Shown here piece by piece: positions 4,323 through 46,898 of a stretch of DNA of 64,000 nt. How positions within the stretch are numbered: the first letter of the stretch is position 1; every line of letters starts with the position of its first letter. The translations under genes and the position numbers were made by a program. The notes beneath the pieces are model-generated. The model saw only the letters and a list, made by a program, of their open reading frames with translations, did not search any database and was not told the DNA's origin. This stretch comes from Octopus vulgaris (taxonomy: Eukaryota): contig OX597821.1 of assembly GCA_951406725.2 (NCBI GenBank), positions 32,736,001 to 32,800,000 on the forward strand. The letters run 5' to 3'.

Positions 4323-4826
4323 CACGCCAATATGTTTTTGTTAAAAGATTTTAATTTATGCAGTCTCTCTGAATACAAGACTGAAAATTGTTTCAAGTAA
4401 TTTAGCTTTAAGTTGCTAAGTACATCCAAATGATCAGAGAGAGGGAGGGAGACAGTGTGTGAGTGAGAGAGAGAGAGACAGAGGGCGGGGAGGTGTGTTT
4501 AATCCTCTTAAGTGTTAATCAGAAATGGGTCGATCTTTGAACTCTTGCATCTGAGGATTTTGTAATTGCATTCCTTCAAAGACTTAATTTCAGATGAATG
4601 AACATTGAAGAATTACAGTTAATGATTCGCTTCTAAAGCATTGAAGAATGAGAGCTTCAGTGAAAAATGTTAATATTTGTACTGTTCTAGCGCTGCGAAT
4701 GAAGATGTTCGAATAGATACATTTATGAAATGATCCCGACTAGTTCTTACCTTATACTAAAGCCCACATCTCCAGCTGCTGTGTCAACTCCTTCCTTAGA
4801 ATTTATCATATATATACTTATAGATA

Positions 4827-4969
4827 AAATATGAATTAGAGATAAAACCACTATTAGGCAACTCACTAGTATAAATATATATTTTATATATTTATACTCT
4901 GAAATTTGATTTAATACTAAATCTAATTTTTGCCTGTAAGTTTGGAGCTATACTCCCTAATATTATTAT
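4827..4969 (+). mobile_element. Short insertion with an internal inversion and a 14-bp TSD (same family as 8375-8622)
   Basis: TATACTTATAGATA occurs at 4813-4826 and 4970-4983. AATTAGAGATAAAACCACTATTAGGCAA matches 8465-8492 directly, while about 4900-4965 matches 8378-8445 in reverse. Confidence 0.7.
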
Positions 4970-5309
4970 TATACTTATAGATATAAATCTGTTGAAAATT
5001 GAAAATGTATGGGTAAAAATATTACAAAGCATTTATATATTATATACTGTATATATTTACGCTTGCATATATAAATATAAGTTTGTGTGGAAAGAAGTTG
5101 TTCTTTCCCAGGGATAAATTTTATCCAAGCGTACACCAGTTTAGCTCTATATCGATTAATGATATTGGAAGTTCCATATGTGTATATGTCCTACCGTTTA
5201 TCATTGGTTCTTCTTCCAAATTAGTGCCTTATAATTCTGAAATTCCAATTGTCTCTAAAGTGGTTTCCATTATTTTCACTATAGGAGAAAAAATTTTAAC
5301 AATATAAAT

Positions 5310-5863
5310 AAAAATGGAGATTACATACGATAAGCAATTTAATTATTTATTAATCATCATAATCAATTCATATTGCCTACACGACGTTTCAGTTTATTTA
5401 ATTATATCAAGGCAAAATTAATAGAGGTCACAAAAGTGACTGAGAGTACTGCCTAGCACCGCCTATGCTAAAATAAGCGTTAGATTAATTTTAAAAACAG
5501 TTAAGCACTATACTTAATGACTGACAAAGGGAGGTAGGTCCCTAGCGTTTATAGACGTATCGTGATTTTGCATTTAGGCTAATAAGCCACCCTTTTAATT
5601 TGTTGTTTACACTTTTTACTGTTTTCAAAATCAGCAAATGTTTTCAACGGTTTTTCTCAGGAAGTTGTTTTTAACCCTAGCCGTTAAAGAGCCGCTGATG
5701 AGAATTAGAATGATGTACAACAAAATTCGAAATCGCGATACGGCTATATACGCTAGCAACTTACCTCCTTTTGTCAGTCATTAGGTACAGTTAATTTAAT
5801 TATTATTGTAGCATAAGAGGTGCTAGTCAGTACCATCCGTCGTTTTTCTGACCTCTATTAATT
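5310..5863. mobile_element. Diverged PLE-terminus foldback (arms about 5416-5574 and 5724-5863)
   Basis: Inverted matches include AATTAATAGAGGTCA/TGACCTCTATTAATT, AATGACTGACAAA/TTTGTCAGTCATT and CTAGCGTTTATAGACGTATCGTGATT/AATCGCGATACGGCTATATACGCTAG. It contains a hammerhead motif. Confidence 0.75.
5690..5745 (+). ncRNA. Type I hammerhead ribozyme motif, intact core
   Basis: AGCCG - CTGATGA - GAATT(17 nt loop)AATTC - GAAA - TCGCGA - TA - CGGCT. Stem I is 5 bp, stem II is 5 bp, and stem III is palindromic. Confidence 0.85.
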
Positions 5864-6282
5864 ATGATACACACACACACACACATACATACATATATAT
5901 ATATACATATATATATGTATATGTATGTATGTGCGTGTGTGTGTTTGTGTGTGTATGTATGTGTGTGTGTGTGTGCGTGTGTGTGTGCGTGTGTGTGTGT
6001 GTGTGTGTGTGTGTGTAAAACTTTCAGTCCGTTCCTGAAACGAAAAGGTGTTATATTTATTCTACATATAATTTGCGGGTAGTAATGATTTACACTCATT
6101 TATGCCGTACCCTTCCTAAAGCTTTCCGGGAAAGCATTGATGCTTCCAGAAGAGACATTCCGACCCACAGAGACATGCGACATGCGACATGCAACTAATG
6201 ATATCAATCTGAGGGTAATAATCCTTTGTACTAAGACCCGGAATTTGGAGAGGGGGTTAGTCGTTGACATCGAGCCCAGGAT

Positions 6283-43227: not shown

Positions 43228-43648
43228 GGATCTTTTGAACGGCAGTTCTTAACATAATTTCTAGGCAACTAAAAAGTTTTAAACTTCGTATACTGGTAGA
43301 ATGTGTTTATAAAACATCTTTTTCTCTCAGCTTTATTGAGAAAATTCTATAGTTTGTAAGATATTTGTTGTTGTTTTTTCTTCAATTTCTGCAATTTCAA
43401 CCAATCAATGACGTGTATTGAGGTAATAAACATTCTGTGCCGTATGAATATGTCCCTCGTTTAAGAAACAGATTGGGTTTATTTACATTTGTGAAGAAAA
43501 AAAGATACCCTTCCCCCACCCCTAACCCTAACAAACCCTAACCCTAAAACAGATTGAAATGCAATAGATCGATACCAGGGTCATAATTATGGGTGACAAT
43601 TTCATATGACACCGCTAGAAAAAACTGCCGTTCAAACCGAAAAGATCC
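43228..43648. mobile_element. TIR MITE with GG termini and internal CCCTAA repeats
   Basis: GGATCTTTTGAACGGCAGTT ... AACTGCCGTTCAAACCGAAAAGATCC (the left TIR has a small deletion). Flanks CAATTAAC and CAGTTACC could be a decayed 8-bp TSD. Confidence 0.75.
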
Positions 43649-44284
43649 CAGTTACCAATATCTGCCCATTCTCTAAAGATATAAGCATATATAATGGCAT
43701 GTTCGTTGTCTAAGTTTTTCTTATGGTGACGAATATATTTGAAATTGAATTTTAAAACACTAAGCAATGAGGATACTACAAGCAAAAAGAGTTATTTTGT
43801 TTGATAAAAACTTAGAAATATAGGATAATATATATCGAAATCCATCTCCAGCATTTCCACAAAAATCTTCATCTAAATCTATGGGTTTATCAAAATCGAA
43901 GTCAAGTATTGTGGAGCGACTACCACAGTTAGTTGGATGTCTTTCTTACAATTCTTCGTCATGGTCGACATTTTATGGGTTCGTGTTACATGACCGACAA
44001 TAAGAGTAATTAAAGAACAAAAGTTTTCGATAATGAAAATAAATTGATGGGACTTGCATCAAACATTACTGCCGCAGTGCATTATTCTATATTTATTGAA
44101 CGCATTCTTCGTAAGTCATAAAACAAACATACAAGCCACAAGTTTGTGGCCTGTAATAAACTTAAGGCTGTGCACTGGTTAGTTTATTGTATTGTTACGA
44201 GAAGGATACATTCCTATTAATTAGTTTCGTTCAGTGATATTTTATGGTCGTTGTATGATCAATATATTGTTTTATATATATAAA

Positions 44285-44624
44285 TTCATACACAAAAGAG
44301 ATACCCGAAGAATAGGATATCTGACTCGCTAGAAAGAGCAGTTAAAACTCCAAGCCACCAATTGTTGTAATTCCGAAAGTGATTGGAAAATAAAAACTTT
44401 TACCACTTTCGGAATTACAACAATTGGGGGCTTGAAGTTTTAACTGCTCTTTCTAGCGAGTCAGATATCCTATTCTTCGGGTATCTCTTTTGTGTTTGAA
44501 CGTACACTGTATTCTTCTTTGAATAATATATGGTCTATTGACTAATTTTTTCTTTCTCGCTAGACCACTGGTAACTAAGAATTTTTCTATGAATATTCTT
44601 GCTACCCTAAGATTTTAATTAATG
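44285..44624. mobile_element. Asymmetric foldback insertion (arms 44285-44381 and 44404-44500, plus a 124-bp extension) with a 15-bp TSD
   Basis: TSD ATATAAATTCATACA at 44278-44292 and 44625-44639. Arms are CACAAAAGAGATACCCGAAG.../...CTTCGGGTATCTCTTTTGTG. Confidence 0.88.
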
Positions 44625-46898
44625 ATATAAATTCATACAGATAGAACGATAGATAGATAGTTATATAGCTAGATACATTCATACATACAAATACATATAA
44701 TGAATGTGTATAAAGATGTATATAAATCTTAACCTGCGGTCACCTTAATGACGTGAGCACATAGCAAAACATTTTTTTGATTTTTACTTGTTATAAAAAC
44801 AATTATTGTACCTGCATAGTGTGCCGCACCATCGTAGTCCATTTTAAGTAATGCGATGGAGAACACATGTTTCGAACCTGCCACTATGTTCATGATATTA
44901 AAAATCATATCAAGAGAGACTAAATTATAGAAACTGTAAAATGAGTTGGTTGATAGAGACACAAAATATATTTTCAAAATAAATGTTTGCTACAAAACAA
45001 AGAAAAACTTTTCAATTATACGAAACGATAAAAAGAATTTATAGCTGGGACTTACTCAGTTTGGTTTCAACAAATAAAGTAGTATTTCCGCAATAAAATT
45101 GATACAACTTGCATGGAATATAGTTATGTACAGAACGGTATCTCTCTCAAAGTGTACAAAACTAAATTCAATTAGATTTGGAAAAGTCAGATTTTTAGCT
45201 CGGTGCTTAATGAATAAACTGATATTGTTTCTGTTACTTCCATGTCTTTAAGCGTAGGATTTATTTTTCTCAAACCACGCGGAGGGATTTTCGACTCTCA
45301 TTCCTCGAAAAGAGAAAACAAGCGATAAAAATATTTATCAAGCTTAGAAGTGATTGAGGAAATAATGTAACTCTTCAAAAGTTAGTCTCACGTACATCAC
45401 TTAGTGCCTCAACAATGATAGAAATACAAATAGAGCTTTCTATTCTTTTTATATTTGTTAGTTTAAAAAGGACAACGTATTTGCCTCCTTCATAAATTAC
45501 AACTGCGTTATTCATCAAGTTCTATATTCAAAAGTTATAATTATGAGCACCACATGAGGGTCATTCTTAAAATCATAACTCTATACAACTTAAGTATCTG
45601 CGACACGGCCTGTGTAAGGTCCTTTTAAAGAAGTGTAAGCTGAGAATAGTGATCGCATTTTACACATACTGGCCTCTTATTAAATGCAAATTCCTTGCAG
45701 TTTTAAAAAGTTACTTTCTAAGTTAAAAACTGTTTACAGCAATGATGCGGATTTTTAACGAAATAAATTATCTAGTCTCGTTAGCTGTTAGATCATTTTT
45801 GAACGCTATTGCAACAAAATTTAATAATCTTAATCTTGAGTTTCTAGGAGAAACGAAATCTATTTCACAGATGGTGCATTGAGTAAATGCTGTTAAAATT
45901 GAGTTAATTCGAGAAAATCTGAAATAATTGATAGAACTTTGCGGCATTTTCTATGTTTAAAAAGGAAACTGCCCTTAGAGATTAGTACTACATTTAATTC
46001 CAATGCATAAACGATCTCCAAAAGATTAAGGATAACTTCAGGAGCCGAAAAGTATATAGAAGTCCAACTATATTTGCGAATCTGAATTTGTGACAGTTAA
46101 TACATTAAAATATAAAGATAGATATCAATGCTAGTTATTACATGAGAATTGCCATAACAAGATGCAAGACAGGCGTTCAAACTCACTCCAAAGAAATAGT
46201 CCCCTACATTACATAAAAGAAATTCCTTGACTTGTGCATGTATAAAACTACATACAATATGACTGTTTGTTTGTATATTCCTCTATCGCTACCTCTATTA
46301 TTACGGCATTGATGTATATCATTTTTATATATTAACAAAATATGGGGCCAATAGTAATTTGTCGCAAACGAATTGGTGCTCTTTGCATACAAAAGATCGG
46401 ACAACCTTTCTACAGAGAATTGTCAAAGATTACAACAGTCTTTTAAGAAACCTTCATTTGTGTGTGTGCTTCTGCGTCTGTCTGTGTGTCTCTGTGTGTA
46501 TGTGTTTTTTGTGATGTAGCTTGATACAGTAGCTCATAGTAACAGTTCACAGTTAATTTTCTTGACGAGAAATTCAGGTGAGAGAGCAGCATTTGATATT
46601 ATTGCACCTTATCCGAGTCCCGTGACAAAGATATATTACAGATAATGTTCAATTTATGTATAAGCCAGGAGCTGATAGAAAAAAATTAAGGAAATCATGG
46701 AAGCCTGCCCGAAAGACTAAATGCCATTCAAAAAGCCAGCTTTGACACATGATTTATATTGATCCTGCCTTTGGATTGTATCAAGAGTACACGGTTTTGT
46801 GGTATGTTCAGTTACTCTACTCTAATTCAATGAGTCGGTAGCTCATCTGTTAAAATAATCGAAACCCTCATAGCCGAAACCGATCGAGGATCAATTTA

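Follow-up and report, generated by a model that had tools for sequence, protein, structure and literature searches.

The closest described relatives of the structures reported here are the endonuclease-positive Penelope-like elements (EN+ PLEs), in which a reverse transcriptase (RT) is followed by a C-terminal GIY-YIG endonuclease. Their insertion units are described as carrying an inverted pLTR and an optional one-sided tail of 30–40 nt (Arkhipova et al. 2013, PMC3846280; Craig et al. 2021, PMC8557442), and the portions of these two accounts used here give no figures for microhomology at the 3′ junction. For the Anolis Poseidon PLE (PAc), reverse transcription was found in vitro to start at two internal sites (Frangieh et al. 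2024, PMC11167929), and this one in vitro study, in the portion used here, argues against a role for primer–template pairing. Insertions with junctions defined by TSDs, here loci E and G, allow a direct genomic test of whether pairing contributes to the inverted, tailed ends of PLEs. A literature search, in which coverage of subscription journals was slight, returned no paper devoted to microhomology or twin priming at PLE 3′ junctions or to PLE palindromes in cephalopods.

Here we describe seven foldback insertions, A to G, in a 64,000-nt stretch of the Octopus vulgaris genome (the window). Their layout, with an inverted pLTR, a one-sided tail and two reverse-transcription start sites, is that already published for PLEs and is for the most part ordinary. 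What the window adds is a set of unusually long tails and a hint that short pairing with the target DNA, over a few bases, likely helps to set where copying starts.

Architecture of the seven insertions

All seven structures are present, and self-BLAST after masking of simple repeats returned inverted pairs for A to F. Their parts are listed below by position in the window and strand.

G, 4813..4826, no strand: TSD of 14 bp, right copy 4970-4983
G, 4827..4869, minus: short arm, start base identical to the internal start of the A short arm
G, 4870..4969, plus: central part and long arm, a small hairpin followed by essentially the ~81-nt tail alone
F, 5310..5866, no strand: old PLE end with two arms of 75% BLAST identity, predicted hammerhead core 5695-5735 (plus)
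A, 8361..8375, no strand: candidate TSD of 15 bp, right copy 8625-8639, in an interrupted TA tract of low complexity, tentative
A, 8376..8541, minus: long arm, tail 8376-8456
A, 8543..8629, plus: short arm after a 1-nt centre, target overlap 5 nt
B, 34813..34961, minus: short arm, end in (TA)n with 3-nt overlap
B, 34975..35165, plus: long arm, unique tail 43 nt
C, 35205..35423, minus: inverted pLTR with 39-nt tail, 5′ edge at the predicted hammerhead core (35419)
C, 35518..37220, plus: PLE ORF, 5′-truncated and split over two frames, with RT at 35518-36798 and the linker plus GIY-YIG-like endonuclease at 36747-37220
C, 37221..37536, plus: 3′ pLTR, predicted minimal hammerhead motif of U3-A8 type at 37363, 7-nt TA overlap at the short end
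D, 37607..37890, minus: short arm of a perfect palindrome with a 1-nt centre
D, 37892..38295, plus: long arm, predicted hammerhead motif 38061-38133, tail ~115 nt
E, 44278..44292, no strand: TSD of 15 bp, right copy 44625-44639; an orthologous site lacking the insertion confirms it
E, 44293..44381, minus: short arm, junction matching long-arm position 44493 at 7/8 bases
E, 44409..44624, plus: long arm, ~129-nt tail, second target match (7 nt, exact) at 44588

Inverted pairs were returned at 8470-8612 in A (no mismatch in 84 columns, two gap columns), 34821-35114 in B (4 in 147, one gap), 35252-35423/37359-37529 in C (4 in 172, one gap), 37607-38175 in D (none in 283), 44285-44500 in E (2 in 94, 10 gap columns) and 5413-5575/5723-5866 in F (20 in 156, 19 gap columns), and the arms of A to F overlap by ~85–285 nt. 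Unique tails measure 39 nt in C, 43 nt in B, ~77–81 nt in A/G, ~115 nt in D, ~129 nt in E and ~100 nt in F, where the boundary is uncertain. Set against the reported 30–40 nt, the tail of C fits and that of B roughly does, whereas those of A/G, D and E are too long by a factor of 2–4, D and E having been examined as single copies. An earlier note on this DNA had seen in these loci one lopsided inverted design shared by unrelated sequences. The lopsidedness is borne out, with one arm longer in A to F and the tail one-sided at 7/7 loci. Inverted duplication fails for G, and the sequences are not all unrelated, as G is 83% identical to A by self-BLAST and forms a single family with it. The two arms of G overlap by ~7 nt, giving a shape like that of twin priming with no inverted duplication.

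Locus C, the coding one, is no hairpin: it is a 5′-truncated RT-endonuclease element whose inverted pLTR lies ~1.9 kb away from the 3′ end. Its RT matches PF00078 (RVT_1, E=7e-8); its GIY-YIG-like domain (E=0.004) falls below the Pfam cut-off and is 49% identical to that of P0007, a relative above the cut-off. This order of RT and C-terminal endonuclease is found in C alone, the other six loci being non-coding, and the reading frame is broken by one frameshift. The linker CGRSNCATC (CX4CxxC) fits the CX2-5CxxC of the Neptune/Nematis clades as defined in the relevant part of PMC8557442. The closest named matches of the RT are Octopus bimaculoides proteins, at only 58–61%; a second search named no cephalopod, and viral_contigs gave no RT relatives.

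Hammerhead motifs are predicted in C (the U3-A8 variant), D and F. A minimal-hammerhead descriptor gave six matches in the window, four of them in the C and D arms, compared with 0–1 per shuffle (10 shuffles). The F motif was detected by a looser scan, and the left arm of F carries a hammerhead-like stem that differs and has decayed. No match in the window came from Rfam at its gathering thresholds, the minimal hammerheads coming only from custom descriptors. The claimed link to PLEs is supported by these motifs together with the RT and GIY-YIG-like domain of C, and a head-to-head inverted, 5′-truncated copy is likewise present. Neither a hammerhead motif nor an ORF was found in A/G, B or E, the arms of which may be truncated before the motif; their PLE membership we infer from architecture alone. 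Orientation is set by the ORF or hammerhead in C, D and F and is assumed in A/G, B and E. A comparison of the arms of A to F with 88 fetched loci gave no match.

TSDs in AT-rich or microsatellite targets were found for E (15 bp), G (14 bp) and, tentatively, A (15 bp), and F has no clear TSD. B, C and D all lie within one (TA)n tract, so TSDs are unreadable there and the local density of insertions is inflated. Short-loop palindromes total 1,246 bp, which is 1.9% of the window. A TIR element also occurs at 38736–40886, symmetric, with 161-bp TIRs and no tail.

Start sites and junctions

Where they can be tested, in A/G and in a comparison PLE family, the short arms start at positions fixed by the element: those of A and G begin at the same base although their targets differ. 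Among the 88 fetched loci, usable ends came only from the comparison family L066–L077 (10 loci used; L070 and L071 represent a single insertion, and L076 comes from a different record). Its short ends fall at offsets 50–54 in 8/8 cases (within 5 nt) and its outer long ends at offsets 82–88 in 5/5 (within 7 nt). Both sites are internal to a tandem unit, the long end lying inside the ORF start of the tandem read-through; a tandem or partial-tandem source copy with read-through beyond both ends was seen in this family only. Long and short end are paired in all four two-ended insertions (p≈0.05 if ends were independent), three of which have TSDs of 13–15 bp. The fourth, L074, has no clean TSD and its arms are truncated at 718 and ~2,320 nt; no TSD was found for the one-armed L066 and L068, and all three were excluded from the microhomology count. 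An exact-pattern scan for this family in genome_contigs gave no match. One further candidate, the symmetric palindrome in L009, was dropped as it resembles a DNA-element end.

These positions bear on two claims of the earlier note. Priming of both target nicks near the 3′ end of the element is supported, while the wording that one primes terminally and the other internally fails in the comparison family, where the long end is also internal, in agreement with Frangieh et al. 2024.

For E, the empty orthologous site that the earlier note had suggested looking for was found in a contig of a relative (organism C), where TTCATACA of E is target sequence, with a 15-nt ambiguity. Contigs of another relative span both E junctions, and none spans the whole of E; in contigs the E arms are also joined at other centres (44348>44437 and 44395>44447). 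Contig runs X19 and X15 cover the E family deeply, unlike raw runs X21 and X22, which gave 3 and 1 reads, none over E, and were counted neither way as read support. No peak at either E end appeared in family-level loose ends among the 12 of 197 rows listed, and exact-pattern scans gave no match for E in genome_contigs or viral_contigs, or for D in viral_contigs.

Pairing with the target and competing accounts

Junctions overlap the target by 1–7 nt at short and long ends (1–4 nt at long ends), and zero overlap was seen at 0/9 of those defined by TSDs. The microhomology is short, at 1–5 exact nt, and its excess over these nine is modest (Fisher p=0.007). The six short ends give p=0.011 against AT-rich background targets, a set that controls for AT content and not for an endonuclease motif, and p=0.024 without E; the long ends alone are non-significant (p=0.12, n=3). 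A positional null built on TA runs gave a joint value of 3e-4 for A to D. The short-end matches include, in G, 3 exact nt and 3 more past one mismatch, in E, 3 exact nt and 4 more past a mismatch, and in D, 4 nt past one junction mismatch. The likeness between target and element claimed for the short end survives as a small excess, mostly generic AT-richness except at E.

The earlier note took the long arm to start at the genuine 3′ terminus of the RNA, with the second nick priming at any microhomology, in the manner of L1 twin priming. The E junction, the sole position among 207 with at least a 7/8 match to the target (p≈0.003), would suit this: five foreign targets fit the E start site poorly in cross-pairing, and E is the one case of pairing specific to its own target. 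The non-overlapping arms of G are as twin priming predicts, and pairing could have chosen the sites behind the long D and E tails. A general rule by which microhomology chooses the second end is nevertheless not supported, given the one start base common to A and G, the fixed short ends of the comparison family with a long end internal to the tandem ORF, and, in C, an unused, longer TA run (10 nt) ~60 nt upstream. E is moreover only one of nine junctions, and a 7/8 match somewhere in its arm is expected for 17% of random AT-rich targets; we judge such a free search improbable. A choice of AT-rich cleavage sites by the endonuclease might instead be sufficient to make targets resemble start sites, with no pairing of primer and template. 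Frangieh et al. (PMC11167929) report AT-rich cleavage that extends to the pLTR of the element itself, and initiation that is non-homologous. Here, the five TA-rich short sites fit their own and foreign targets about equally well, and the E target has a further exact 7-nt match (p≈0.04), which lies 37 nt from the long end. We hold this explanation to be somewhat unlikely, as the excess persists against the AT-rich background with or without E, overlap is zero at none of the nine junctions, and the actual E junction is not TA-rich.

The perfect palindromes invite a different reading, in which the long-arm cDNA folds back and is copied in the direction of its start, and microhomology-mediated joining then captures the copy on the second target overhang, such that the short end marks termination and not priming. 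This would apply mainly to A and D, with their identical arms and 1-nt centres; a mirror-position centre in another contig of the E family, with a short side of only 21 letters, agrees with it, and self-priming was invoked for head-to-head palindromes by Arkhipova et al. 2013 (PMC3846280, in the part used here). It leaves C, G and the unequal 5′ truncations of L074 unexplained and does not predict fixed short ends, and the arms of F, set apart by indels and by hammerhead stem II, better suit two templates; we think this reading unlikely. Assembly or library fold-back artefacts are very improbable. A and D are perfect palindromes, and the raw-read runs had no E coverage, but the flanks are unmirrored, the arms have diverged in B, C, E and F, TSDs are present, and both E junctions and the empty site occur in independent contigs.

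Proposed route and known systems

We consider it probable that A to G are truncated two-armed insertions made by a PLE RT-endonuclease, with a staggered cut ~13–15 nt apart and priming at two internal sites fixed by the element. The enzyme would cut (TA)n or AT-rich DNA with a stagger, as the TSDs of E and G, and tentatively A, suggest. Reverse transcription would then start at the downstream site from one nick and at the upstream site from the other, yielding the long and the short arm respectively, and the tail would be the stretch between the two sites; the fixed positions come from A/G and the comparison family. Pairing of 1–7 bp between the 3′ overhang and a TA-rich start site likely sets the exact register, and in E may have shifted the start upstream. 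Both antisense cDNAs would end early and be joined head to head. A long-site cDNA halting at the short-site primer would leave an arm of tail only, as in G, while two cDNAs reaching the same RNA end, or one folding back, would give a perfect palindrome, as in A and D. A more specific form, in which one complex primes both nicks on a single RNA, always one per site, and pairing with the 3′ overhang can displace the upstream start, by as much as ~95 nt in E, and thereby set tail length, seems doubtful to us; if true, it would be at odds with the in vitro finding that initiation is independent of homology.

As they stand, these loci are more examples of a known PLE layout and chiefly useful to repeat annotation. 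Octopus is reported to have exceptionally high levels of near-perfect dsRNA and A-to-I hyper-editing, the repeat source of which is not named in the part of the report used here (PMC5625713), and Porath et al. 2017 give 4.4e-3 of octopus loci as forming near-perfect dsRNA, a figure measured differently from the 1.9% here. If transcribed, the foldback loci would be candidate ADAR substrates, and foldbacks (~2% of the window) could, though this too seems doubtful to us, be a main source of octopus dsRNA and hyper-editing.

Among known systems, MITEs and TIR DNA transposons share terminal inverted repeats in TA tracts, and differ in their symmetry, the seven loci being asymmetric and three carrying predicted hammerhead motifs. 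In L1 twin or dual priming (Meyer et al. 2010, PMC2837659), a second-strand 3′ overhang annealed to RNA likewise primes an inverted cDNA within TSDs, and the product described there, two non-overlapping fragments of one RNA, bears an internal deletion and a 3′ poly(A). The shape of G alone fits this; the arms of A to F overlap by far more, starts are fixed wherever they can be tested, and poly(A) is lacking. A freely chosen second site is not seen in A/G or the comparison family and is possible at E. With EN+ PLEs, as described in the published portions cited above, these loci share the head-to-head 5′-truncated inverted copy, the tail at one end, TSDs, (TA)n targeting, palindromic junctions, predicted hammerhead motifs in the pLTR of C, D and F and, in C, the Neptune/Nematis linker, and differ in the ~77–129-nt tails of A/G, D and E. 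With PAc, as far as its account is used here, they share cutting and extension on both strands, an AT-rich target and a tail bounded by two internal RT starts; the differences are the 1–7-nt junction overlap seen here and the pairing of a long with a short end in the two-ended insertions examined.

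Architecture and independent sequence

The window is AT-rich animal DNA whose composition suggests an octopus-like host. When it (GC content 25-46% per 2 kb; simple repeats 11,762 of 64,000 bases) was compared with itself by BLAST with simple repeats masked, loci A-F were recovered as inverted pairs and G as a relative of A, 83% identical. The insertions are set out below, the tail being the stretch of the long arm beyond the short arm.

Inverted insertions in the window
A, 8375-8622: arms with 0/84 mismatches, 2 gap columns; unique tail ~77 nt
B, 34813-35166: 4/147 mismatches, 1 gap column; unique tail 43 nt
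C, 35205-37536: 4/172 mismatches, 1 gap column; unique tail 39 nt
D, 37607-38295: 0/283 mismatches, 0 gap columns; unique tail ~115 nt
E, 44285-44624: 2/94 mismatches, 10 gap columns; unique tail ~129 nt
F, 5310-5863: 20/156 mismatches, 19 gap columns
G, 4827-4969: tail alone forms the long arm

One arm extends past the other at every locus, and the design proposed in an earlier note on this DNA, an inverted duplication with one longer arm, is borne out for A-F by this search and the arm comparison. G had been described in the same way; its arms overlap by only ~7 nt at their meeting point, where there is also a small local hairpin, and that description does not hold. The loci had also been called unrelated, which is true of B, C and D, housed side by side in a single (TA)n tract (34813-38295), and untrue of A and G, which form one family. 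E is flanked by a 15-bp TSD and G by one of 14 bp; A has a tentative 15-bp TSD, and a search for one at F found none. Foldbacks make up 1.9% of the window. No symmetric hairpin of the A-F kind was found in the masked self-BLAST, the remaining inverted matches being dispersed repeats, two short imperfect palindromes and a 161-bp TIR pair at 38736-40886. The two-armed form is not universal among insertions in the window.

Other elements in the window
38736-40886: probable DNA transposon or MITE lying in (TA)n, symmetric, its 161-bp TIRs (12 mismatches) flanking ~1.8 kb of decayed sequence; served as control
17650-17860 and 40930-41130: one-armed copies of another PLE-like (Penelope-like element) end, 88% identical, hammerhead at 17773 (-); each copy terminates in (TA)n, the two end points agreeing to within ~2 nt
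51040-51200 (-): piece resembling a pLTR, the PLE terminal repeat, with a hammerhead core at 51148, adjoining an (AAT)n tract
51496-53261 (-): non-LTR retrotransposon fragment with a zf-RVT domain
51496-51781 and 52089-52374: direct duplication of 286 bp of that fragment, 98.6%, around (AAT)n tracts
6281-6516, 21933-22146, 41885-42830, 54357-54586 and 56498-56729: dispersed SINE-like family, ~230 bp; 41885-42830 is a cluster of partial tandem copies
11438-11785 and 23189-23656: DNA transposase remnants (weak HTH matches; DDE_1 E=4e-9)

Independent sequence was compared over 44150-44760, locus E only, in four runs, two of them raw reads. The empty orthologous site that the earlier note had suggested seeking was found for E in a 978-bp contig of a relative, organism C, which jumps from 44277 to 44625 with 15 ambiguous letters, thus confirming the TSD. 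Contigs of a second relative, organism D, cover both junctions (44150-44317 and 44590-44760), and none among the matches listed covers the whole of E. In further contigs the left arm is joined to the right elsewhere, at 44348>44437, where one side has 21 letters, and at 44395>44447, where 14 letters are added. Centres that differ in this way would be expected of other copies of the E family. The raw WGS runs X21 and X22 gave three and one reads over the interval, none on E, and are uninformative either way; both are labelled with the species of the best holder, and neither has reads on the E repeat family, which is deep in the contig runs. No loose-end peak lay at either end of E among the 12 listed of 197.

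Coding and hammerhead evidence

C codes for a reverse transcriptase (RT; PF00078, E=7e-8). Beyond a frameshift come a CX4CxxC linker and then a GIY-YIG-like domain, which at E=0.004 falls short of the cut-off and is 49% identical to a relative protein, P0007, whose own GIY-YIG domain exceeds the cut-off. The closest named relatives of this RT are Octopus bimaculoides proteins (58-61% identity); a further search named no cephalopod. PLE-type RTs 39-47% identical to C also occur on short contigs in bacterial records (SUP05, Campylobacteraceae, Bacteroidota; L001-L005 and others), probably as contamination by animal host DNA.

A minimal-hammerhead descriptor found six matches across the window, whereas every one of ten shuffles gave 0-1; two of the six lie in C, two in D and two in one-armed copies (17773, 51148). 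Both motifs in C are of the U3-A8 type, described in an excerpt of PMC4209133, and the start of a hammerhead core at 35419-35423 coincides with the 5' edge of its inverted arm. F has a core at 5695, and the stem II regions of its arms seem to differ (a decayed 2-bp stem, 5540-5610, versus a 5-bp stem, 5680-5760). Hammerhead motifs, which the earlier note had proposed to tabulate, were found in C, D and F. A/G, B and E showed neither ORF nor hammerhead and matched none of 88 fetched loci, so that we infer their PLE origin from the shared design.

End positions, microhomology and a proposed mechanism

In A and G, which lie in different targets, the TSD starts 7 nt past the same element motif. 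A larger sample came from fetched loci of RT relatives, among which one family with long contigs and readable ends (L066-L077, 10 loci used; 808-aa ORF, ~31% RT identity to C) has short ends at offsets 50-54 in 8/8 cases and outer long ends at 82-88 in 5/5, leaving a tail of ~35 nt. Its two-ended insertions have one long and one short end in 4/4 (p≈0.05 under independent ends) and TSDs of 13-15 bp in 3/4. Tandem copies run on beyond both end sites, within the ORF, which makes the long end of this family internal as well, contrary to the earlier proposal of one terminal and one internal priming. Extension of fixed start sites to the window's families is supported, short of proof, since this family belongs to another animal and another PLE lineage.

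At the TA-tract loci, the share of element positions that would overlap by as much TA or more is 0.20 for A, 0.21 for B, 0.09 for C and 0.08 for D (joint 3e-4), so the short sites are TA-rich; a longer TA run in C is left unused. At the nine junctions defined by a TSD (one each at E, G and A, two each at L067, L070 and L075), exact overlap is 1-5 nt and zero at none, a modest excess over random AT-rich targets from the window (Fisher p=0.011 for the six short ends, or 0.024 with E left out; 0.12 for the three long ends; 0.007 for all nine). Foreign targets matched about as well as the own target at 5/6 short sites, so most overlap is generic. E is the exception, its junction being the sole position among 207 with at least a 7/8 match to the target (p=0.003 if the site were fixed and pairing played no part; ~0.03 after nine tests). 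The E target has a second match, 7 nt exact, at 44588 (chance 0.04), 37 nt from the long end, which is the usual tail length; this single copy may have slipped from a canonical site, undergone a later microhomology-mediated deletion of ~95 nt, or belong to a long-tailed family.

We consider it probable that a PLE RT-endonuclease nicks AT-rich DNA in staggered fashion and primes cDNA from both nicks at two internal sites fixed by the element, the register likely being set by a few base pairs, and that the two truncated cDNAs would then be joined head to head. The geometry, the TSDs, the empty site at E, constant end positions in two families and the modest excess of overlap are shown by the data, while the enzymology, a causal part for pairing and the joining step are inferred. 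G fits one RNA whose long-site cDNA halted on reaching the short-site primer. For C and L074, two cDNAs truncated independently of each other fit, and F suggests two templates or two events because stem II seems to differ between its arms. Snap-back, which could also account for A and D, is rather unlikely. Endonuclease preference without pairing, which the generic overlap at most short sites favours, is a doubtful alternative. Priming chosen freely by microhomology, as the earlier note had it for the short end, has the shared motif of A and G and the 8/8 fixed short ends against it, possibly holds at E, and is improbable overall, while an artefact is scarcely credible. Some of these readings are compatible with one another.

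Comparison with known systems

The insertions are genuine, and most of their design has been described before. For PLEs, excerpts of Arkhipova et al. (2013; PMC3846280) describe inverted pLTRs, an optional 31-bp tail, TSDs of 8-10 bp and head-to-head palindromes, and those of Craig et al. (2021; PMC8557442) a tail of 30-40 bp, in many cases confined to one end, and insertion into (TA)n targets. As excerpted, Frangieh et al. (2024; PMC11167929) report that both strands are cut and extended, that the tail is bounded by two internal start sites, and that the start-site RNA is not homologous to the cut DNA; in L1 twin priming, an excerpt of PMC2837659 states, the fragments do not overlap. The portion of PMC9977147 available held nothing further for this comparison, and a literature search with thin coverage of subscription papers returned no study of PLE 3'-junction microhomology or of tails >40 nt. 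Points that may go beyond the known layout are the length of the tails, a possible role for pairing at E and a putative rule that each insertion combines one long with one short end. High dsRNA content is reported for octopus (PMC5625713, in excerpt), and, if the host is an octopus, foldbacks of this kind could be imagined as a candidate source.
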